Numbered from the stretch's first letter, positions 2,226-14,530 are shown. The stretch: DNA of 64,000 nucleotides from a virus (IMGVR_UViG_3300043812_000026), one strand, 5' to 3'. Numbers and translations: made by a program. Notes: generated from the sequence alone by a model not told the origin.

Positions 2226-3361
2226 TGAAAGCTCTAGTATGTGGAGATGTTCATTTAACTAATTATGGAATGTTTAATGAGCCGACAGATGATCCAGCAG
2301 TAGGGTCTCGTCTATCCTATATCTTAAAAGCATTAGATGATTTCTTTGCTTATGGTAAGGAAAATAACATTAATACATATATCATTAATGGAGATTTGTT
2401 TGACTCACGACAGAGCGATAATCCAACTACATTAGCTCATATCCGTAAACACTTTATTACTAGTTTCAGAAATTTAACTAATGTTAATAAGGTTACGCTA
2501 TACTTAAACTCGGGTAATCACGATCAACTTACTCGTAGTGTTACCCCAAATAGTTTAGAAGACTTTGAATTGTATTCTACTGATACTCATAAGATTAAAG
2601 TGATTAATGCAGTTACTCCTATTCAGGTAGATAACAATACTGAATTATTTTTTATTCCCTATGACGAGGATATTAAAGGAACTAAAGAAGCGGTTAAGGA
2701 TTATTTATACAAACATCCTTTTAATGGAGCTGTTAATGTGTTTGCTCATTTAGGTGTAACAGGGGCTACCCAAGGACGCTGGAACCATCGTTTAGGTGGA
2801 GCGTTTAATCTCGATGATCTAGGTTGGAACGCACCTAATGTAAAGTCAATTTCTCTTTCGCATTATCATACCCGCCAGAGCCTTAAAAAAGAGGGTACTA
2901 AAGACGCTTATTATATTGGTGACTTAACTGCTCTTAACTTTAATGATATTGGTAGTGATGGTTTAGGTGTACCTCGTGGATTTGATGAGATTGACTTAGA
3001 TACGGGAGAGCATAAGTTTATTGATTTAACACAAAGTCCCTATAATATTCCTACTTTTAATCAAATTAATTTAGATACAGACGATAATTTTGATTTAGCT
3101 ACACAAGTAGACGATCATTCTTATTATAAGATTAGTTGTAAGTCAAAAGATACTTATGAAAAGTTAGCTAAAGAATTAGAAAATAATTCTATTGCTTCTC
3201 GTGTGCAATTAATCCTTTTGCCTCAAGAGCAACGTGTTACAATTGATGTAGACGCTAATGCTACTGATACTGAATTAGTATCTAAATATTGTGATTTGAA
3301 TTATCCCGAAGTTAAAGATAAAGCATTAGACTACTTAAGAAAGGCAAAAGAAGCAGAGTGA
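2225..3361 (+). CDS. Mre11/SbcD-like recombination exonuclease (metallophosphoesterase)
   Basis: GDVH, NGDLFD, GNHD, AHLG, SHYH motifs. Confidence 0.9.
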   Translation: MKALVCGDVHLTNYGMFNEPTDDPAVGSRLSYILKALDDFFAYGKENNINTYIINGDLFDSRQSDNPTTLAHIRKHFITSFRNLTNVNKVTLYLNSGNHDQLTRSVTPNSLEDFELYSTDTHKIKVINAVTPIQVDNNTELFFIPYDEDIKGTKEAVKDYLYKHPFNGAVNVFAHLGVTGATQGRWNHRLGGAFNLDDLGWNAPNVKSISLSHYHTRQSLKKEGTKDAYYIGDLTALNFNDIGSDGLGVPRGFDEIDLDTGEHKFIDLTQSPYNIPTFNQINLDTDDNFDLATQVDDHSYYKISCKSKDTYEKLAKELENNSIASRVQLILLPQEQRVTIDVDANATDTELVSKYCDLNYPEVKDKALDYLRKAKEAE

Positions 3362-5175
3362 TAACTTTAGAATTAGGAAACGTTTTCATTAAGATAGTTT
3401 TTGAAAATGTGAATGATAAAACAATTGAATGGGTTTGGAGTCAAATTCATACTACTTTTGATCCGTTAGACCCCGAAAGGTTTAGGAAACGTCCTTATAA
3501 CCTTAGAAAAAGTAACGGAGATCGTGTGTGGGATGGCAGGGTAAACCTATGCGAGGAGAAAGATCATTTAGTACCATTAGGGTTTTATGACAGACTAATA
3601 GTGCTTATGAGAAGTATTGAACAATCCTCTGGGATTGTAGTTAAGGTAGTAGATAAACGAGGACCTGCTTTACACTTTAATATTCCAGACGAAATTACTA
3701 TTGATGGTCACGGTAAGGAAAAGACTATTACGTTACGTGACTACCAATATCAATCAGTTGTACAAGCAGAAAAAGAACAATCTGGTATAATCTTAAACGC
3801 TGTGAACTCAGGTAAATCAATTACTGCAATTACAATCTTTAAGTATTTGTTACCAAAATTAAAAGATGGGCAACATTTGCTTTTTATTGCTCCTAACTCT
3901 AGTATTATGAACCAGTTATATGATAAGTTTAGCCATTATCTAGGTGAAGGCATTACTGGTGTTTGGGGCGATGGTAAAAAAGATATTAATAAGCCTATAG
4001 TATGTGCTACCATTCAGAGTTTAGCCTCTGCAATTAAAGAACCAAAGACTAAACCTACTAAAAAGAAAGATAAGCTCTTAGGTCGTTTTGCTGAACGCTA
4101 CGCACCCGCTATTTTAGAATCTGGTGATCCTCGATCTAATCTTGAATTATTAGCTAGAAATTTCCACCCTAACTATAAGTATGAACAAGATGATATTGAA
4201 GAATTACGTAGTCTTTGTATGAATTTACAAACGTCTGATGACGTAGAGGACTATTTTAAGGGTGTACAAAAGCGCTATAAGAAGTTGCTTTATAGTCTAA
4301 ATGAAAGTGCTTATGAGAAGTATTATGACGCTATAGATTTATTAAAGTCTACTAGAGCTGTTATTTGTGACGAGGTTCATCGTGCTGGTGCTATTTCTTA
4401 CTGGAATGTTTTCCACTATCTTGATAACGCTAGAATGAAGCTAGGGTTAACTGGTACTTTAGATAAGACTAAGAAAATTAGTATGGCACATATTCGTGGG
4501 TTGTTTGGAAAAGATTTAGTAAGCGTTACTAATGACCAGATGATTAGTCGTGGTGTATCTGCTAGACCGCATATTAGGCTAGTACCTATTGATGAGCCTA
4601 CAGACCTCGAACCTCGTATTCAAGCTACAATGATGGCTAAGGGATATTCTCAGCTACCTACTGCTGATCTGTTGTCCTATCAGATTGCATATGATTTAGG
4701 AGTAGTCCATAATGAATACCGTAATCGTGTTGTTGCTGAATTAGCTTATAAAGCTTCTTCTAAGCTGGATAAGCAAGCAGTACTAATTATGGTTACGTCT
4801 ATTGAGCATGGAGAATTGATCGGAGAACAGCTTGATAAATTAGGTGCAGAGTACCAATTCTTGCAGGGTAAAGATGATAGTGCTACCCGAGAAAAAGCGA
4901 TTGATGATATTGTTAGTGGTAAGCTTAAAATTGTAATTGCTACTAAGATTTTTGAAGCTGGGATTGATATTCCTAACTTAAAGGTATTAATTCTTTGTGA
5001 TGCTTTAAAGTCTTACATTTCTGTTATTCAGAAGATCGGGCGTGTGTTACGGATAATGCCAGATAAGCGAGATGTGTTTATATTCGATCTTGTTGACAGG
5101 ACACAAAATTCGTTATTTAAACACGCTCAAGATCGAGTAAGGTATTATAAAGACGAAGGTTTTGAAGTTAAATAA
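3358..5175 (+). CDS. Superfamily 2 DNA helicase (UvsW-like)
   Basis: LRDYQ, SGKS, DEVH, LTGT, GIDIPNL, QKIGRVLR motifs. Confidence 0.92.
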   Translation: MITLELGNVFIKIVFENVNDKTIEWVWSQIHTTFDPLDPERFRKRPYNLRKSNGDRVWDGRVNLCEEKDHLVPLGFYDRLIVLMRSIEQSSGIVVKVVDKRGPALHFNIPDEITIDGHGKEKTITLRDYQYQSVVQAEKEQSGIILNAVNSGKSITAITIFKYLLPKLKDGQHLLFIAPNSSIMNQLYDKFSHYLGEGITGVWGDGKKDINKPIVCATIQSLASAIKEPKTKPTKKKDKLLGRFAERYAPAILESGDPRSNLELLARNFHPNYKYEQDDIEELRSLCMNLQTSDDVEDYFKGVQKRYKKLLYSLNESAYEKYYDAIDLLKSTRAVICDEVHRAGAISYWNVFHYLDNARMKLGLTGTLDKTKKISMAHIRGLFGKDLVSVTNDQMISRGVSARPHIRLVPIDEPTDLEPRIQATMMAKGYSQLPTADLLSYQIAYDLGVVHNEYRNRVVAELAYKASSKLDKQAVLIMVTSIEHGELIGEQLDKLGAEYQFLQGKDDSATREKAIDDIVSGKLKIVIATKIFEAGIDIPNLKVLILCDALKSYISVIQKIGRVLRIMPDKRDVFIFDLVDRTQNSLFKHAQDRVRYYKDEGFEVK

Positions 5176-5730: not shown

Positions 5731-8700
5731 ATGAAAAGAATGTTAGTAGTATTGGATCATTATGACGCTGATATGTTTAAAGTGGTTAATAAGAAAGCCG
5801 AAGGAAACTTTTTACATAGTGTCGTAGGTTCAATTCTTTCTAATAAAATTATTGGTCACCCAAAAACAGGTTTAGATACGAAAGATACAACAGTAGACTT
5901 GAAGTTTCTTTATACTGATAAAGTACCCCCTCGTAATAAATACACTAATGCAGTTGTTAAGCCATCTGCTAGTATCTTGCATAAGAAACGTGATGAGATG
6001 GTGCAGTATATCTTAGATACTAAACCCGATATTGTTGTTTCTTATGGAAGTTGGTTTAAGAATGAATTAACTTCTTTATATAAACTTCCTAAAGATATGT
6101 TTGAATTAATTCCGTTTAAGCTACCCCAAAGTGACTTTACTACTTACTTAGTATTTAACCCGTCACTTAAACAACAATTCTTCTTGGGTAGCTATGAACG
6201 AGATAAGATGATTATTAGTAATCGAATGGTTAATCGGTTTTTAAAAGGTGGGATTGAGAATACTAAGCCTCAGTTTGGTAAGTATCGTTTAGTTACTAAT
6301 TATCATGAGGTAGAACGTATTTTTAATGAAGTTTTACCTAAGTACCCAATCATCGCACTGGACTTTGAAACTAATACCCTTGAAACTTATCGTAAAGGGT
6401 GCTAAGGCTATTATGGTAAGTATGAGTTGGGAAGAACATCAAGGTGTTTCGATTCCGCTTAATCATCGTCTTAGTCCTAATTTGTGGACTAAAGAACAGT
6501 TCGATAGTATCATTAATATGATTAAAGAATTAATGATGAAAGAGCAACGTAAGGTATTACATAACTGTATCTATGATATTCATATGATGATGGATATTTA
6601 CGGGCTAGAGTATGCTACTAATTGTGTTGATACTATGCTTATGTATTATGAAACAGTGGATGAGAACCAAGGCGCTCAACGTGGGCTAAAGCACTTAGCT
6701 TATAAGTATACTGATATGGGTGGTTATGAAGACGAACGTGATCAAGCTATTGAACAATACTTAAAGAATGATTATGACCGTTGGTATTCTACTGAAATGG
6801 AAAAGTATGAAAAAGGCGAACGTAGTCGTAAGCCAAGTAAGACACAGTATACAGCTCCTACTAACCAAGTAGACGGTGGTAAGGTAGATTTCGAGTGGTT
6901 GCCTATGGAAACTATTTATAAGTACGCTTCTGCTGATACTGATGTTACCCTCCAACTTTATCACATTTTTGATAAAAAGGTTAAGTCTCGTCCTAAGTGG
7001 GTTAAGTTCTGCTATGAATTCTTCCCACAACTATGCGATACTTTAGCTTATATGCAACATACTGGTTTTCAAATGGATATGGATAAAATGGAGAAATACA
7101 GAGAACACTTCACTACTGATATTGAAGAAGTTACTAAAAAGATGTATGAGGTTTCTCCCGAAATCCAAGAATACGAAAATCATAACCTAGCTCTTTTGCA
7201 AGAACGGGAACAGATTAAAGCTATCAAGCCTGCTGATCGGACACCAGAGCAGAAAGAGAAATTTAAGGAATATGGTAAGCTACGTGGTGAAGATACTAAT
7301 GGTATTCCTAAATACAAGTTTAACCCTGGATCTAGTGAAAAGATTGGCTATGTTTTATACCATATGTTAGGCTACAAGCTACCTGCTGATAAAGAGTATT
7401 TAAAACCAAAAGCTGTCCAGTCTCGTAAGTTAAGCCATCCAGAAAAACTTACGTGGAAAGATTATAAGACTGATCGTAATTCAGCCCTACCCTATATTAA
7501 AAAGACTTATCATGCTCCATTAGTTGATTTATTGTTGGCTTATTCCAACGATAAGAAAATGATTAGCTCTACTGTTGAGGGATATAGTAAGCTGGCTGAT
7601 GCTACGGGAAAATCACATCCTACTTTCCACCCATCTGGTTGCTTAGACGGGGACACTTTAATCCCTACCAGTTTAGGTATTAAGAAATTAAAAGATCTTT
7701 CAGACAATAGAGAAGAAGATACTTTTAAGGATTTGAAAATTGATATTATTAATAAAGATAATAATAAAGAATTAACAGACGCTTTTTATTATTCTGGTAT
7801 TCGAGACTCCTATCAGATCAATTTAGAGAATGGTAGTAGTATTATTACTACTCCTAACCATCCTCTGATTGTTAATAATTTTTTAAAAACTAATAATAAA
7901 ATTCCAATGTACAAATATAAAGGAAAACCTTACTTGACTAACTATTTAAGTAAGTTTAATGATGAGGAATGGCTACCTACTAAAGATATTAAGGCAGGTT
8001 ATTGGATTAAAGGTACTATTGGGGGAAATATTTATGGTAATAAGACAACTATTGAATTTAACGACAGTGAATTTCCTAGCAATACTAGAAGTAAAAAGAA
8101 AAAAGTTACCCTCCCACATGAGTTGACTCCAGAGCTAGCAGAATTCTTAGGAATGTATACTGCTGATGGTAGTTATAGTAGTAGCAAAAAGGGTAGCCAG
8201 ATTCTTATTACTAATGATGATCAAGTTGTTCAGGAGAGGTTGGATTATTTAATTAAACACTTATTCAATGTAGATCCTTATTATCGAGTAGATACAAGAC
8301 ACGGTAGGGAAATTACTGTTAATATAGGCTCTACACAAGTTTTTAGGTATCTTAAAAAAATGTTTAATATTAGTTCCCGAGGGTACGAAAAAACCGTCCC
8401 ACAGTTAATATTAGACTCCACAAAAGAAGTTCAATTAGCTTATTTAAAAGGACTTACGCTTGACTCTAGTATTTATAAGAAAGGGTATCCTTCCATTTAT
8501 TTAAGTACAACCTCGGAGGAGCAGGCAAAGGCAGTCTATTCGATGCTATTAAATATTGGTATCTATGCTAGATTTGCTAAACGTAAGATTTACCCTAGAC
8601 TAGGGTATAAACATGAACATCCCTTATATGATATAATGATTAGTCACGAAGACGTAAAAGTTTTTGTAGAGTGTATAGGATTTGTTGAAATAGAAGAAAA

Positions 8701-10430
8701 GCTTAAACCTTTGATTGCTAAAATAAATAATTATTCTTATACGAAAAAACCTAAACATTATGGTGTTATAAGATATAATAATTTTATATGGTTAAAAATA
8801 AAGTCTATTGATTATTTAGGAAAAAGACCTATGTATGACTTAAAGACTTGTGACACTCATAGTTTTTTAGGTAACAATATTATTAGTCATAATACGTCTA
8901 CTTCTAGGCTCTCTAGTAGTAATTTTAATGCCCAGAATATTAAAAAGCCTACAAGTGACGTTTATGATCCTAATTATAATTATTCAGCTAAAGGACTATT
9001 TAAGTCAAGATTTAAGGGTGGATATATTTTTAATATTGATTATAAGTCACTAGAAATCTTTATTTCTTCTTTAATTGCTAAAGATATTGGTATGATGCAG
9101 GCTTTAATGGATGGTGCTGATATACATAAACGTAACGCTAGTTTAGCTTTTAACATTCCTGTTGATGAGGTAGATTCCGAACATAGATACCTTGCGAAAG
9201 CCGTAGACAAACTTGCGGCCATATTATAGTAATATAATTTGAAAAACATCCCCTAAACGGGCTTACCGTAATAAGGTGGTAAGAGAAGCTAAACCTTATA
9301 ATTTAAGTAGGGCAGGCTAATCCCGTACCAAGTTAAAACAGGTCTAACGACTATATAGGGAATATCCTAATAGGATAAAGATATAGTCTTAACTATAACG
9401 AAAGTTATTAGACAAAAATGAAGTTTTGGTTAATTACTAAAAGTAAGCCACTTTTAACAGTAATGTTAATTGAAAAATATCCCCTAAACGGGCTTACCGT
9501 AATAAGGTGGTAAGAGAAGCTAAACCTTATAATTTAAGTAGGGCAGGCTAATCCCGTACCAAGTTAAAACAGGTCTAACGACTATATAGGGAATATCCTA
9601 ATAGGATAAAGATATAGTCTAATCTACTTAGAAATAAGTAGTTAATATAATTGTTACTTTACGGAGAGTCTCCACAAGGACTTTCAGAGTCACGTGGATT
9701 AACTTTAGAAGAAGCTCAACAGGTTTATGATAAAGTGCTAAGTGCTATGCCACAAATGCAAAAGGCGATTGAGGTTACCGAAGACTTTGTAGAGCAACGG
9801 GGATATGTAGAGACGATTGCAGGACACGTAAGACGATTACCAGAAGCTACTCAGAGTTTAGATTATGGTAAGAAATCTCGTGCTATACGTCAGTCTTTTA
9901 ACGCAGTTGTTCAAGGTAGCGGAGCATATTGTACTAATACTGCTCTAATTATCATTCGCAATACGTTACGTAAATATGGGTTAAAGTCTCGTATTGCTAT
10001 TACGGTGCATGACTCGATCGTATTAGACGTACACCCAGATGAAATTAATATTGTCCCAGCAATGGCAAAGAAGATTATGGAACATTTACCTATTCAAGAT
10101 TTTATTCTTAACATAAATGATTTCCCTACTTTAAAAATTGCTGATAAGTATAAGATTAATGATACTCAATTCCGTTTCCCACTTTTCGGTGAAATTGCTT
10201 TTGGCAAGACTTATGGTGATGATCTTGACTTCGACTTTGATGATTACAAAGCTCTGGGGATTGATAGGTATTATCAATTTAGTATGGAATGTAAGTACAT
10301 TGAGGATAAGGCTAATACTGATTTAAGTAAGGAAGATGATAATGATAAGAAAGCTGAGATTGTTAAACAACGAGATCGGCAATTAGAGGAAATTAGAAAT
10401 AAATATTTTAAAAAGGTTGACAATAAATAA
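5731..10430 (+). CDS. polA: Family A DNA polymerase (N-terminal extension, 3'-5' exonuclease, polymerase), split by one frameshift, an intein and two group I introns
   Basis: ExoI DFET, ExoII HN..YD, ExoIII YASADTD, T.TSRLSS, motif A DYKSLE, motif B reconstructed as RYLAKAVSFGLLYG, motif C VHDS. Removing 1 nt at 6397-6399 and both introns gives a 4260-nt frame (1419 aa precursor, 1001 aa without intein). Confidence 0.93.
7640..8893 (+). mobile_element. Intein with LAGLIDADG homing endonuclease domain (418 aa)
   Basis: Starts CLDGDTLI, block B TPNHP, LAEFLGMYTADG and LAYLKGLTLDS motifs, ends ISHN before +1 Thr; exteins rejoin as HPSG/TSTSRLSS. Confidence 0.93.
9205..9420 (+). ncRNA. Group I intron 1 in DNA polymerase (216 nt, no ORF)
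   Basis: P1 exon GCCGU with GCGGC (U.G at splice site); P10 AAACUU with exon AAGUUU; P7 GACUA/UAGUC; terminal G9420. Confidence 0.9.
9239..9620 (+). repeat. 151-bp direct repeat (9239-9389 and 9470-9620), the two intron cores
   Basis: One mismatch seen (C9247/T9478); offset 231 nt. Confidence 0.95.
9421..9430 (+). other. 10-nt micro-exon of DNA polymerase (completes Val, then Ser-Phe-Gly of motif B)
   Basis: GCC GT|A AGT TTT GGT|TTA CTT TAC GGA restores frame and AVSFGLLYG. Confidence 0.88.
9431..9653 (+). ncRNA. Group I intron 2 in DNA polymerase (223 nt, no ORF)
   Basis: P1 exon UGGU with GCCA; P10 AAAGUAA with exon UUACUUU; same core as intron 1; terminal G9653. Confidence 0.9.
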
Positions 10431-10445
10431 TGTATGTTATATACT
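10417..10445 (+). promoter_or_regulatory. sigma70/sigmaA-type promoter
   Basis: TTGACA-17 nt-TATACT. Confidence 0.85.
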
Positions 10446-10451
10446 ATACTT

Positions 10452-10830
10452 ATGGTTAGGGACTAGCCGTGGTAAGATAGCAAAGTTCTGTAAGTTAGGT
10501 ATTCAGAATACTGATGTAAGATCCTAAATACTACCTTGTGTTCCCAGAAACTTAGTCATTCATGACCGAGTAGTTCACTATAATAACTGTTGACAGATAT
10601 GTTAACGAATCTGATTTTAACAAGTTGTACCTAGCATAAAGGCGTTCCTATTTTATTACAAGTTTAATATGGGATTATCTTACGTCCAGCTAGAAATTAC
10701 AGCTAATCGCATAAAACAGTTCCTATTTAAAATTGACTCGAAATCAACCTACAGTTTACTGTTAGCGATTAATGAAAGTTCCTTATAGCGGGTACATAGC
10801 GTGCACAGCCCGTTGTAGGGAACTTTTTAC
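10452..10830 (+). ncRNA. Candidate structured ncRNA/leader with two covarying repeat units and a terminal hairpin
   Basis: ORF-free; multiple helices; units at 10631-10693 and 10704-10771; long hairpin 10776-10826 followed by a U-run. Confidence 0.6.
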
Positions 10831-10852
10831 ATACAAGAAAGGAAGTATAATA

Positions 10853-12946
10853 ATGAAAAACTTTTCATATGCTATGTTAAATTCAATTAATGACGTAACT
10901 ATTCGCTTATTTAAGGGAGTAGATATGGATATTCAGGGGGATAAGGTTTCCCGTTCTGCTACAGAAGTTCAAAAAATGGCTAGAAACGCTATGAGTTACG
11001 GGCTTATGTTTGATACTGAAATCCTAAAGTCTGTTTCCGTAATGGCATTAAAAGATATTTTCAATACAGCAAAAAAATATTACGGAATTAGTAATAGTAT
11101 GGTTAATTCAACCTTCTTCCAGACTTTAGATCAGAATATTAATACTCCTACTTATATGCGAATGTATATGCAGGCTCTTAACTACTTGCAAACATATGGT
11201 GGAGTTAATGTAACTAGTCACGAAACTGTTCAGTTTGGCTCTAATCGGCAATTAGACGATAGTATTAAATTAGATTTACAACAAAACTTTACAGTCATTT
11301 CTGCTTTTACAACCGAAGAATTAAATCAAAAGGTTCAGTCTTTACTTTACAGTGGTATGGCTTTAGAATCTAAAGCTGTTGAGGATTTAATTTACTTAAT
11401 TAGTAAACTGAATCTAAAAATTGAAATTAGTAAAGTTAAGAACCGTGAAGCTATGATTAAGCTTAGCAAGGAGTTAGAGCTTTATCCAGCAAATCCAGAT
11501 ATGTTTATGAATTACATTTACAGTTTAGTTACTGGTGATACAATGCTGGTAAAGAACGATCAAGCTTACCTTAAATTTAATGATATGCTCCTTGATTCTA
11601 ATTCTACTAATGACTTTGTTTATTCATTAATGCACGAATATGACAGTAACCATTCAACGCCTTCACTAAGATCATTAGTTAATCGTTACCACAAGATGTT
11701 CTTAATCCTACGTAAGAATGCTCCTTCAAGAGAAGAAAGACGTTTCTACAATCGTATCATGCGTCAAGGTAAGAATACTAAGAAAAATTACCGTCAAAAA
11801 GGTATTTTAGATCAGTTGCCAGAATACATTAAAGGTGAAGTATCTTTTACTGAAAAGCAGATTTTAGGTGCTTTATCTAATGCTAGTACCTATAAATTAG
11901 CTCGTATTTATACTTATCTAGTTAACCTAAATAAGAAAGATAAGAATGGATCGCTATATCGAATCCGTAACGGTAAGTCTTATTATGTATCTGGTAAGGA
12001 AGACCTCGATGATATTTTTAACTCATTTATCTCCTTTAAGAATGTTGCTGATAATAAAGTGATTAAGGATTTAGTTTCTAAGATTGTAGATGAGCTTCTC
12101 CAGCGGGGACAAAATGCTTTTGCTGATAACGATAATAAAACTGTTTACTATATTCCGGGTGGGCTATATTATAGCATTCCTACCTCTGGTAAGCAGTTTA
12201 CTGGTAATATTCCAGATTACACTAGCTTTGACTTCCAATTGACTGGTGACGAACGACTTGGTGTAGGTATCCACTGGGACAAGCAAGCAGATCTCGACTT
12301 ACACGCTGTTACCTTAGATGGTGATACCTTTGGTTGGAATACTGATTGGTTGGACGATGATAGTAAGGTTGTCTATTCTGGTGATATGACACGTTTAGAT
12401 GATAGTGGAAATGCTAGTGAAATTATGTCCCTTTCTAAGGACTTAGATAAACCAGTCTTATTATCTGTATCTCCATACTATGTTGACGGGGGCTACAAAG
12501 ATTTCAACTTTGACTTATTTGTAACTCGTTTTAATCAAGGAAAACTTAGTTCAGATTTAAACTCAACGCCTGAGGTTTATGTTAAAAGTATCTCCAAAGA
12601 TGCTTTTAACATTAATAAGTTATCCTTTAAGAATCAAAGTACCATGACTCTAGGGGTGATTATTCCTCGTGGGGACGGAAAATTTAGCTTTGTAATTACT
12701 AATTTTAATTTCGGTGCAGTACACGTCCCAAACCAAGATCAGAATAAGCAATTATTAAGCTACCTCAATGATTATACTGAAAATGTTCCGCTCTTAAATA
12801 ATATTCTCGGTGGTAAGTTAGTTGATGATAAAGACTTATTACCACACTACACAGAACAAGGTTACAAGGTAGTGGACTTATCGCCAGCCAATGTAACTGT
12901 TGATACTTTCACTGATTTAATTGATGAGTTAGATGAAAACAAATAG
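10853..12946 (+). CDS. Large uncharacterised protein with C-terminal TerD-like domain (697 aa)
   Basis: GIHW..ADLDLH..GWN..VYSGDMT..ASE resembles TerD-family DLDL/SGD motifs. ATG 10853 follows SD AAAGGAAG, so the ORF-track start at 10772 is unlikely. Confidence 0.65.
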   Translation: MKNFSYAMLNSINDVTIRLFKGVDMDIQGDKVSRSATEVQKMARNAMSYGLMFDTEILKSVSVMALKDIFNTAKKYYGISNSMVNSTFFQTLDQNINTPTYMRMYMQALNYLQTYGGVNVTSHETVQFGSNRQLDDSIKLDLQQNFTVISAFTTEELNQKVQSLLYSGMALESKAVEDLIYLISKLNLKIEISKVKNREAMIKLSKELELYPANPDMFMNYIYSLVTGDTMLVKNDQAYLKFNDMLLDSNSTNDFVYSLMHEYDSNHSTPSLRSLVNRYHKMFLILRKNAPSREERRFYNRIMRQGKNTKKNYRQKGILDQLPEYIKGEVSFTEKQILGALSNASTYKLARIYTYLVNLNKKDKNGSLYRIRNGKSYYVSGKEDLDDIFNSFISFKNVADNKVIKDLVSKIVDELLQRGQNAFADNDNKTVYYIPGGLYYSIPTSGKQFTGNIPDYTSFDFQLTGDERLGVGIHWDKQADLDLHAVTLDGDTFGWNTDWLDDDSKVVYSGDMTRLDDSGNASEIMSLSKDLDKPVLLSVSPYYVDGGYKDFNFDLFVTRFNQGKLSSDLNSTPEVYVKSISKDAFNINKLSFKNQSTMTLGVIIPRGDGKFSFVITNFNFGAVHVPNQDQNKQLLSYLNDYTENVPLLNNILGGKLVDDKDLLPHYTEQGYKVVDLSPANVTVDTFTDLIDELDENK

Positions 12947-12955
12947 TTAATTAAT

Positions 12956-12978
12956 AAGAGACTTTTAGGTCTCTTTTT
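12956..12978 (+). terminator. Intrinsic terminator
   Basis: aagagac-tttta-ggtctctt followed by T-run. Confidence 0.75.
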
Positions 12979-13002
12979 ATTTTTAATTTTTTGTACAAAA
13001 GT

Positions 13003-13056
13003 AGTTGAAAATTCAACTAAAAGTGTTATACTTATAATTGAAATAAGGAAAGGAAG
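13003..13056 (+). promoter_or_regulatory. Repeated promoter with palindrome over the -35 box, plus SD
   Basis: AGTTGAAAATTCAACTAAAAGTGTTATACT; close copies at ~17660 (+), ~36665-36695 (-) and ~55554-55583 (-). Confidence 0.75.
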
Positions 13057-13063
13057 GGATAAG

Positions 13064-13612
13064 ATGAGTTTATATGGTAATTATGTTCCAGAAAACATCG
13101 AAATGACTTATAGTAAATTCCAAGAACTAGAAGGTAAGCAAAAAGCTCTACAAGAAGAATACGAAGATAAAGCTAAGTTTATGATGAGTGACTATAATTT
13201 ATATGATCCTAATATCAAAACTCTGGTAACTGGTTATTCTTTAGGTGAAGTTATTTTTAGTACTTGGGAACATGATTTATATGATGATGTTACTAGTATC
13301 TTTTATGACCTAGTTGCAAGTGTTGAAAAAGCAATTTATATGAAAAAAGGTAAAAAAGTTGCTAATGATACTGATCTTGTCGGTAACTTTGTAAAATGTT
13401 TTAGTAAGTCTTACGATAATGACTTGGCTAAATCTGATGCTGAAGAATTTTGCTTCGGTCTTGATGATTGGGTTGAAGAATTAAAGATTGAACATGATAG
13501 TCAATATTTCTATGTTCCAGACCCCCTGCTTCTCTTACAGAATACAGACAATAATGACATAAAAGGGCTTGCCGAAATTATTTATGAAGGCGGGGTTAAG
13601 AAAGTATGCTGA
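13064..13612 (+). CDS. Hypothetical acidic protein
   Basis: ORF with strong SD and own promoter. Confidence 0.7.
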   Translation: MSLYGNYVPENIEMTYSKFQELEGKQKALQEEYEDKAKFMMSDYNLYDPNIKTLVTGYSLGEVIFSTWEHDLYDDVTSIFYDLVASVEKAIYMKKGKKVANDTDLVGNFVKCFSKSYDNDLAKSDAEEFCFGLDDWVEELKIEHDSQYFYVPDPLLLLQNTDNNDIKGLAEIIYEGGVKKVC

Positions 13613-13860
13613 GTTTACAGACGGTTAAATTAGTTAAGGTATTAAAGGAACGTCCTTTACCAGAAAAGATTGCTAAAGAACTTGAAAGTTTAAAACTAAA
13701 CCCTAACAATTATGTGTTTGTTGACTATGATGTTACTTGTCCTATTGGTCATCGTCATTATACAGATCGTATCTGTCTTAAAGACGAATGGGAAGTTCTT
13801 AAATCAACTGGTTATGAATTAGAGTATGTAGATTACGACAAGATTATCCCTAATGGCTAA
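13606..13860 (+). CDS. Hypothetical protein
   Basis: ORF overlapping the previous stop. Confidence 0.6.
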   Translation: MLSLQTVKLVKVLKERPLPEKIAKELESLKLNPNNYVFVDYDVTCPIGHRHYTDRICLKDEWEVLKSTGYELEYVDYDKIIPNG

Positions 13861-13933
13861 AAATTGTGCTAGCGTTTTTGTGATTTGTTGGTAAATTTTG
13901 TTTAATGAATTTAGAAGTTAAAGGACTGTTATA

Positions 13934-14530
13934 ATGTTTAAAGTATATTTTAATTATGGTTGTATGAAATCTGGTAAAACCGCTGATTTATTAATTACAG
14001 CACATAATAATAGAGAGAAAGGCGTACCTGTTTATATCCTTTCTCCTAAAATTGATAATCGTAATGGTGAGGGTGTAGTTTCTACTCGAATTGGTATCTC
14101 AGCTAAGGCTGATTTTATCTTGGATAAGTATGATAAAGAATTACATGACTTTCTTATCAAAGTTTATAATGAAGACGGAATGATTATTATTGACGAATGC
14201 CAATTTGTTGATCCACTTACGGTTCATTCAATGTGTAAGTATTGTCGGGATTTAGATTTTAGTAATACAAGCCAAAAGACTAATTTTAGTATTATTGCTT
14301 ATGGTCTTCTAACTGATTATCGTTCTAGCTTATTTGACGGAACTATTGCTTGGCTAGACGAAGCAGATTCAATTAATAAGATTAAATTTAGCTGTGCTTA
14401 TTGTTCCAGACAGGCTACTCGTAATCTGCTAACTAATAAAGTAGATCAAGATGGTAATGTTTTAATCGGTGATAGTGAATATAAGCCTGTCTGTTCTTAT
14501 CACTATTGGAAGTATAATAATAATTTTTAG
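13934..14530 (+). CDS. tdk: Thymidine kinase (type II)
   Basis: YGCMKSGKT, IDECQF, YGLLTDYR, CxxC and Y.PVC motifs. Confidence 0.93.
   Translation: MFKVYFNYGCMKSGKTADLLITAHNNREKGVPVYILSPKIDNRNGEGVVSTRIGISAKADFILDKYDKELHDFLIKVYNEDGMIIIDECQFVDPLTVHSMCKYCRDLDFSNTSQKTNFSIIAYGLLTDYRSSLFDGTIAWLDEADSINKIKFSCAYCSRQATRNLLTNKVDQDGNVLIGDSEYKPVCSYHYWKYNNNF

Follow-up and report, generated by a model that had tools for sequence, protein, structure and literature searches.

The 64,000-nucleotide (nt) stretch of viral DNA IMGVR_UViG_3300043812_000026, referred to here as the window, contains two tandem units upstream of a gene for a 697-amino-acid protein with a TerD-fold domain, and the two units belong to a large family of small non-coding RNAs that is missing from Rfam. 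Each member joins a conserved handle to a variable insert, and on balance we favour the view that they are modular partner RNAs, with a handle that binds the protein and an insert that displays a mimic of tRNA, and that together with the protein encoded downstream they form a particle resembling that of Ro60 and Y RNA. Full-text literature searches found no description of this RNA-protein system. The features of the window at issue, with positions counted from its first nucleotide, are as follows.

10631-10693, plus strand: RNA unit A, consisting of the handle (P1, joint, P2 and UUCCUAU...UUAC) and a 25-nt insert unlike an anticodon arm (from sequence and folding)
10704-10771, plus strand: RNA unit B, with the same handle and an insert that folds as an anticodon-arm-like hairpin (from sequence and folding)
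10733-10747, plus strand: the hairpin UUGA/CUCGAAA/UCAA of unit B, whose 7-nt loop C-U-CGA-A-A is like that of a tRNA-Ser(CGA) anticodon arm (from sequence)
10853-12946, plus strand: gene for the 697-amino-acid partner protein, with a helical-repeat N-domain (residues ~1-425), a TerD fold (~430-640) and a small C-terminal domain

The two units and their pairings had been put forward in an original prediction made from the DNA sequence, and both are confirmed from sequence and folding. In unit A, P1 is formed by CUAGC (10631-10635) and GCUAG (10689-10693), the joint is AUAAA (10636-10640), P2 pairs GGCG (10641-10644) with CGUC (10683-10686), UUCCUAUUU starts at 10645, and UUA lies at 10680-10682. 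The corresponding elements of unit B are UAAUCGC (10704-10710) paired with GCGAUUA (10765-10771), the joint AUAA (10711-10714), AACAG (10715-10719) paired with CUGUU (10759-10763), UUCCUAUUU at 10720-10728 and UUA at 10756-10758. Folding as described gives z values of -2.05 for unit A and -2.72 for unit B, the window inserts are 25-27 nt long, and GTTCCTATTT is confined to the two units within the 64 kb. When the comparison with Rfam proposed in the original prediction was run, the units matched no described family, and nothing was found in the leader either at the gathering threshold or at a permissive E up to 10; no tRNA gene was found in the window by ARAGORN, nor was the Rfam RF00005 cloverleaf detected. 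The window alone is insufficient to place the units beyond chance, and they exceed chance because their relatives keep the motif with different stems.

Those relatives are numerous. Tandem and single-unit pattern scans of a viral collection yielded about 100 viral loci with true units; for the first tandem scan about 100 chance matches were estimated, and only loci that passed a pairing filter were kept. A covariance model built from 66 units, among them both units of the window (which score 24.8 bits for unit A and 39.6 bits for unit B as members of that training set), identified, with an E of at most 0.01, a further 193 units spread over 69 loci. The fold consists of P1, a 3-4 nt A-rich joint, a 5-bp P2, UUCCUAU, the insert, UAC, P2', a 1-nt bulge and P1'. 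The consensus sequence reads GGC, A-U/A-A, a 5-bp P2 ending in G, and UUCCUAU followed by an A-rich stretch and the insert, and it continues on the 3' side with U/A-UAC, P2', a bulged C and GCC. UUCCUAU and the G-C pair closing P2 are invariant across the family, and the insert ranges from 11 to 94 nt (median 23; 196 units).

The structure of these RNAs is far beyond chance. Both P1 and P2 are recovered by RNAalifold without prior structure, and in an alignment of 138 distinct units pairing holds in 93% of cells, compensatory changes occur at each of the 11 pairs, and not one of 500 shuffles attains any of the five observed pairing measures. Sliding the partners by a single column lowers pairing to 39-53%, and the outer P1 pairs covary too, though the scanner did not select for them. 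The claim that these are covarying structured RNAs with invariant unpaired motifs is thus well founded. Some 40 cells of the alignment are G-U and the units are constantly co-oriented with genes, and both observations suggest that the RNA strand is the gene strand (plus). The same observations bear on the notion that the repeats act as DNA, either as protein-binding sites or as an origin beside the DNA polymerase gene. The array does adjoin a DNA polymerase A gene in the window and nine other loci, this being the commonest neighbour, and an invariant 8-bp word is repeated; but compensatory changes preserve pairing, the G-U cells would be A-C on the opposite strand, the orientation relative to genes is fixed, and tRNA-like inserts are sensible only as RNA, so that we regard a role as DNA as extremely improbable.

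The RNA family is closely tied to the family of the partner protein. Four viral contigs (contigs and loci are given L numbers) encode a homologue at 88-95% identity, and homologues of 28% identity (P0043-P0045) are encoded on contigs L005, L006 and L007, where the gene is preceded by two units, a GC-rich hairpin with a U-run and a ribosome-binding site; the stem sequences there differ from those of the window, whereas G-UUCCUAU and UUAC are identical. The motif, which the original prediction had proposed to look for upstream of homologues, is therefore present even at 28% identity and with the stems changed. A 68-kb assembly contig of Limosilactobacillus agrestimuris (L126) likewise bears two units, at 6959-7093, together with a copy of P0045 at 91% identity; this is probably a prophage or a co-assembled phage and hints at the host group of the P0045 clade. 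Starting from the RNA alone gives the same association, as about 68 of 92 unit-bearing loci identified by RNA-only scans have a homologue adjoining the array (tblastn), and the remaining loci are mostly cut at the array or are jumbo-phage segments. Phages that have a homologue among the phage records carry units as well. No neighbouring gene is conserved among the loci.

The usual arrangement is an array on the same strand as the gene, with the last unit ending 10-30 nt before the start codon, although this is by no means universal. Cyanophage S-CRM01, which is in culture, has four units before g174 and one directly after it, and the cultured cyanophage S-CBWM1 has one unit before gp22 and another within a tRNA cluster. 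In Phass-1, a genome recovered complete from a human-gut sample, four units are found downstream of the gene, at a distance of about 1.3 kb. Altogether, units downstream of the gene or flanking it on both sides are seen in L039, L087, L158, L170, L172, S-CRM01 and Phass-1, and in the jumbo phages L136, L137 and L159 single units sit between tRNA genes, in intergenic gaps, and always share the orientation of the genes on either side. The number of units varies from 1 to about 7. The annotated S-CRM01 gene g173c (L204 2752-2898, minus strand) is probably not a real gene, because it overlaps the RNA array, with three covariance-model matches, on the opposite strand.

In the window, the region between the DNA polymerase gene, which ends at 10430, and ATG 10853 of the 697-amino-acid open reading frame (ORF) comprises about 420 nt without a credible ORF. 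The signals here and beyond the gene are the following.

10417-10445, plus strand: sigma-70-type promoter, TTGACA-17 nt-TATACT, with 11 of 12 consensus matches and the top score within 9000-14000
10446-10570, plus strand: clade-specific extra leader segment that provides the present -10 box (from the leader alignment; without counterpart in L001 and L003)
10774-10828, plus strand: terminator-like hairpin of 20 bp with a 14-nt loop, followed by UUUUU (-28.2 kcal/mol, z -7.0)
10838-10845, plus strand: ribosome-binding site AAAGGAAG, 7 nt 5' of the ATG (from sequence)
12956-12985, plus strand: intrinsic terminator 3' of the 697-amino-acid gene

The promoter is where the original prediction had placed it and is the best match of the region. 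The prediction had also described about 400 ORF-free nt as a whole, and while the ORF-free stretch is certainly there, only part of it is conserved. Contigs L001 and L003 lack ~10446-10570 and have a perfect TTGACA-17-TATAAT promoter immediately 5' of the array, and the conserved element is therefore the array plus the hairpin and not the entire 400 nt. The extra segment is found only in the closest relatives (L002, L004, L030 and L085) and in no other relatives. This segment of about 125 nt sits between the -35 box and the former -10 box of the array promoter, carries a -10 box of its own (TATACT), and has a predicted fold of -28 kcal/mol. From ~10582 to the ATG the leader is almost invariant among the close relatives, with 93.5-97.8% identity as compared with 86-92% for coding DNA, and the few differences map to the inserts.

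The terminator-like hairpin at 10774-10828, which lies between unit B and the ribosome-binding site, was overlooked in the original prediction, and the simple co-transcription of RNAs and gene proposed there is not supported; since the hairpin intervenes, 'co-transcribed' here means read-through of a terminator-like signal. GC-rich hairpins with U-runs are located at the equivalent position in L005, L006, L007, L036 and L095. We considered the hairpin as a third unit because its 5' arm contains GUUCCUUAU, and rejected this because it has no P2 and no UAC partner.

This organization raises the question of whether the units act simply in cis, as an mRNA leader in the form of a tandem operator or of a riboswitch-like element through which the gene product or a small ligand controls termination at 10774-10828 or translation, with no independent small RNAs being made. 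Consistent with this are the position of the array upstream and on the same strand in most loci with its last unit 10-30 nt from the start codon, the high conservation of the leader, and, in the window clade, a terminator placed after the array in the manner of an expression platform. Most clades, however, have no terminator between the array and the gene, and there is no conserved alternative pairing with the terminator; the inserts vary freely and can hold an entire tRNA-like body, unlike a ligand pocket; and units also occur downstream, on both sides, or at a distance among tRNA genes, in varying copy number. The variable placement and copy number, and the terminator that in the window clade cuts off the array from the gene, are not what would be expected of a leader that senses a ligand or is purely autoregulatory; they argue against a mere mRNA leader, and we consider that explanation unlikely.

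The view that we favour, that of partner RNAs displaying tRNA mimics, draws its second part from the inserts. The hairpin of unit B, which the original prediction had likened to an anticodon arm, is not a one-off, and the enrichment of such loops that it proposed to look for is readily seen. When the inserts from 196 distinct units were screened for hairpins whose 7-nt loop reads Y-U-NNN-A-A, 30 units qualified with a stem of at least 3 bp, as against 4.8 +/- 2.2 (maximum 11) in 200 dinucleotide shuffles, and 21 units with a stem of at least 4 bp, as against 1.5 +/- 1.2, corresponding to enrichments of about 6-fold and 14-fold respectively. The loops are borne on more than 20 different stem sequences. 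Their triplets are GUU (seven), UUU (four), UGA (four), GCA (three), CGA (two) and GGU (two), with CUU, GUA, UCU and GCG among the single cases, and Phass-1 adds GCA and UUU. The triplet also changes between relatives: from the window to L003 the loop CUCGAAA becomes UUUGAAA (CGA to UGA) with the stem kept, and between L036 and L095 CGA is replaced by GCA with the stem, U33 and A37-A38 kept. The 25-nt insert of unit A is, as had been recognized, not a canonical anticodon loop.

A more extensive form of mimicry is found in L029, L053, L089, L116 and L125, in which the insert is a circularly permuted tRNA-like body, arranged in the order anticodon-stem 3' strand, T arm, closed acceptor stem, D arm and anticodon-stem 5' strand. 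A permuted tRNA-like topology has been described for bacterial Y RNAs (PMC4201824), and units of L089, L116 and L125 match the Rfam family YrlA with 48, 44 and 38 bits (the gathering score being 69 bits), although the score originates in the tRNA-like part and not in the handle. An antisense match to RAGATH-12 on L089 (16.5 bits, E 0.75) was taken as chance.

What tRNA mimics might do for a phage is suggested by the nucleases that phages encounter. AriB of the PARIS system cleaves tRNA-Lys(UUU) and tRNA-Thr(UGU) as well as tRNA-Asn(GUU), and phages answer with tRNAs of their own; retron-Eco7 depletes tRNA-Tyr and PrrC cuts tRNA-Lys, and these too are countered by phage tRNAs (PMC12409363, PMC11555353). 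The commonest mimicked anticodons, GUU and UUU, overlap the tRNA targets of PARIS AriB and PrrC, an overlap that is suggestive but does not constitute a test.

The partner protein belongs to a large family, with 2,481 clusters at 50% identity of which 1,222 are found at E up to 1e-30, yet searches of Pfam, PHROGs, NCBIfam, PADLOC and PDB sequences assigned the window protein to no family; an NCBIfam match to a type III ATPase is noise (19 bits, with a cut-off of 604 bits). In an AlphaFold2 model built from 46 sequences (predicted local distance difference test score 79, predicted template-modelling (TM) score 0.79), residues ~430-640 form a TerD-type beta-sandwich that Foldseek matches with probability 1.0 to 2qng, 3ibz, 2kxt and 2qz7, and for which VIA returns TerD matches over residues 460-638 with Z 9.2 (root-mean-square deviation (rmsd) 3.5, 145 residues aligned) and Z 8.5 (rmsd 3.5, 147 aligned). 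The original description of the protein as TerD-like therefore holds for this domain. The acidic motifs DLDL and SGD..D/E, which are conserved in the family, coincide with the positions of the TerD metal-binding motifs, while Pfam TerD (PF02342) gives no match at E up to 1 in 46 members. The N-terminal 425 residues form a helical repeat with an invariant RIRNGK hairpin. When this domain was folded alone nothing specific was found, the best VIA match having Z 6.8 and rmsd 1.9 over 48 residues and the best Foldseek match an E of 0.1, and an ESM Atlas feature search with it returned only an unnamed viral cluster. Foldseek rows to botulinum toxin are meaningless, with an rmsd of ~30. For the full-length protein, ESM Atlas gives a match over ~627 residues (TM score 0.70 by query) to the bacterial MXAN_6230/SCO0854 RING proteins, and two homologues have weak matches to the corresponding NF041916 (28-30 bits over ~90 residues, E ~1e-7; cut-off 600 bits); the window protein itself has no NF041916 match and no RING in Pfam.

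Given these components, the system could be a true but very diverged Ro60/Y-RNA system, in which the N-domain would be a TROVE ring and the units strict Y RNAs. The sub-threshold YrlA matches of some sibling units would fit, as would the modelled helical-repeat character of the N-domain, and the 5' strand of the handle, GGC-A-U/A-A-A/G-G, resembles GNCGAAN(0-1)G, the proposed Rsr-binding motif (PMC4201824). Against it, Pfam scans of the window protein and of 45 homologues, permissive to an E of 1, gave no match to TROVE (PF05731), a search of PDB sequences with the family profile at E up to 10 recovered no chain of Ro60, and Ro60 is absent from the Foldseek and VIA-align lists, both with the full model and with the N-domain by itself. 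In place of a vWA domain with a metal-ion-dependent adhesion site, the C-terminal half has the all-beta TerD-like sandwich, and, as noted above, it is not the handle that generates the YrlA score. The protein cannot therefore be called TROVE-like, a relation of it to TROVE/Ro60 is not supported, and we think it improbable that this is Ro60 in diverged form.

The genomic surroundings of the arrays are rich in tRNA functions. There are tRNA genes in 36 of 60 loci, often dozens, a Pnkp-Rnl1 fusion is encoded three genes downstream in L007 and L008, and Rnl2-type ligases are nearby in four loci. On the viral contig L029, a bacterial-type RNase P RNA (4448-4744, 148.8 bits) is located within a block of 34 tRNA genes that terminates at the RNA array and partner gene. 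L022, also a viral contig, has a tmRNA gene (2870-3124, tag AKSFAVAA) directly 3' of the partner gene, and L036 (144-218) and L095 (1554-1628) each have a tRNA-like gene with the four-base anticodon cccc just 5' of the array (all from ARAGORN). L095 further encodes a tRNA with anticodon UUA, which reads a stop codon, and L033 one with CUA. It could be imagined that the units serve polycistronic tRNA-type transcripts as signals for processing, stability or punctuation, the protein being a processing factor or unrelated, as they are intergenic, co-oriented with flanking genes and interspersed with tRNA genes, with phage RNase P RNA nearby at one locus. Simple hairpins, though, would not be expected to keep an invariant 7-nt loop motif and G-C pair across very distant phages, mimics of anticodon arms and tRNA bodies are too frequent for simple processing hairpins, and the units are very tightly linked with a single family of proteins; we rate this possibility as remote.

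We therefore return to the model of an RNA-protein particle. The handle, with P1, the A-rich joint, P2 with its invariant G-C, and UUCCUAU...UAC, is the putative protein-binding site, and the display module would be free to evolve, being in some units a plain linker, in others a copy of an anticodon arm and in others again an entire permuted tRNA-like body. Transcription from the promoter at 10417-10445 would yield both units and would mostly stop at 10774-10828, with read-through providing the mRNA; the leaky terminator would thus supply more RNA than protein. Unit B would present a tRNA-Ser(CGA)-like anticodon arm. We infer that the protein binds the units, that these are processed to stable RNAs, and that the particle most likely engages enzymes acting on tRNA, perhaps as a decoy or sponge for host anticodon nucleases, or else as an adaptor bringing such enzymes, or RNA-repair enzymes, to the protein. 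A decoy role against anticodon nucleases in particular is a tentative proposal. So is its fullest form, to which we would give only limited credence, in which the TerD-domain protein and its arrays of scaffold RNAs would copy the anticodon arms or bodies of nuclease-target tRNAs as a programmable decoy whose anticodon (CGA, UGA, GCA, GUU, UUU and others) evolves fast and shifts to match the defences met.

Several observations weigh against this model. The first unit scanner demanded pairing of P2 and inner P1, the second alignment was fitted to the covariance model and so favours its structure, and units are shared among related phages, such that the counts are not fully independent. Anticodon-like loops are present in only ~15% of units, with unit A of the window being among those that have none, and Ser(CGA), the anticodon of unit B, is not among the nuclease targets given in PMC12409363 and PMC11555353. 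The N-domain matches no RNA-binding fold by Foldseek or VIA. Finally, the last unit abuts the ribosome-binding site in most loci, which fits mRNA autoregulation, and the last unit could for this reason double as an operator.

If there is a true RNA-protein particle, it would represent a second, apparently unrelated lineage of modular ribonucleoproteins in the style of Ro60/Y RNA, and one that is widespread in phages, to judge by the number of protein clusters and by RNA units that run into the hundreds; a large protein family lacking annotation would in addition gain a name and a partner open to testing. The anticodon-arm and tRNA-body modules bear on how phages cope with PrrC, PARIS, retrons and Schlafen-type nucleases, and a programmable decoy, were it real, would amount to a novel class of counter-defence based on RNA and would offer a natural scaffold on which RNA hairpins can be displayed. 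Since the cultured cyanophages S-CRM01 and S-CBWM1 carry the system, the question is directly testable.

The DNA polymerase gene upstream of the array has features of its own. Its nearest match is in Lactobacillus fermentum phage LfeInf (59% identity). The window derives from a Lactobacillus-type phage of roughly 150 kb, whose relatives are metagenomic contigs of 130-156 kb, and a megablast search of phage records found no near-identical DNA for the window. The first part of this family A polymerase (6326-9229) contains an intein with a LAGLIDADG homing endonuclease (residues ~453-856), and two small group I intron-like elements at 9195-9410 (45.8 bits) and 9415-9641 (42.4 bits; the Rfam threshold is 50 bits) are placed in tandem, about 4 nt apart, in the gap of the split gene. 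Their cores are identical over ~145 nt and their 5' (P1/P2) and 3' ends differ. With the intein and the two introns, the polymerase gene is interrupted by all three.

Of the systems with which the RNAs and their protein may be compared, the TerD family (tellurite-resistance, calcium-binding beta-sandwiches such as 2qz7, 3ibz and 2kxt) shares the fold of residues ~430-640. The domain here differs in having no Pfam TerD match and in being embedded in a protein of about 700 residues with a large helical domain, and there are no Ter operon genes nearby; a literature search found no link between TerD and RNA, and the one paper in which TerD and Y RNA are both mentioned deals with each separately. 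The MXAN_6230/SCO0854 RING proteins (NF041916) appear, from predicted structure, to share the fold over the ~627 aligned residues, but they are ~990 residues long and have a prokaryotic RING, which the window protein does not. As for riboswitches and leaders, the units lie upstream in most loci, with a terminator following in the window clade, and they are also placed downstream, on both sides or among tRNA genes, most clades having no terminator. The tRNAs with which phages oppose nucleases, including the T5 tRNAs that act against PARIS AriB (PMC11464382, PMC12409363) and the tRNA-Tyr and tRNA-Lys that act against retron-Eco7 and PrrC (PMC11555353), are likewise phage-encoded RNAs with anticodon arms, often in tRNA gene clusters, and the mimicked GUU, UUU and GUA are targets of those nucleases. 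These phage tRNAs are complete and functional and take the place of the ones that are cut, whereas the units show the arm only, on a foreign scaffold tied to a protein, and therefore cannot decode.

The closest parallel is with Ro60 and Y RNA, for which the comparison set comprised YrlA and YrlB of Salmonella, Yrn1 of Deinococcus and phage versions (RF02553; Chen et al. 2014, PMC4201824; Thermus phage Ro60, PMC12135203). In both cases a single protein gene has one to several small RNAs encoded beside it, each RNA is built of modules, one a conserved stem or handle and another a mimic of tRNA, and there are links to RNA-repair genes and a presence in phages; where the new family has a tRNA-like body, its permuted order (anticodon-stem 3' strand, T arm, closed acceptor, D arm) is identical. 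The differences are equally clear. The new protein has a TerD-fold domain and gives no signal of TROVE or vWA, the handle is marked by an invariant motif of its own, G-UUCCUAU...UAC-C, many units show only an anticodon arm or a plain linker, and arrays reach ~7 units and are mostly upstream of the gene. The window units themselves give no YrlA (RF02553) match even at E up to 10, their inserts do not form a body with T arm, closed acceptor and D arm, and the protein encoded beside them has no TROVE match. The analogy drawn in the original prediction has substance for the RNAs, with their permuted bodies and sub-threshold YrlA scores in sibling units, and is not supported for the protein: the system would be built like Ro60/Y RNA, yet it matches neither YrlA nor TROVE.

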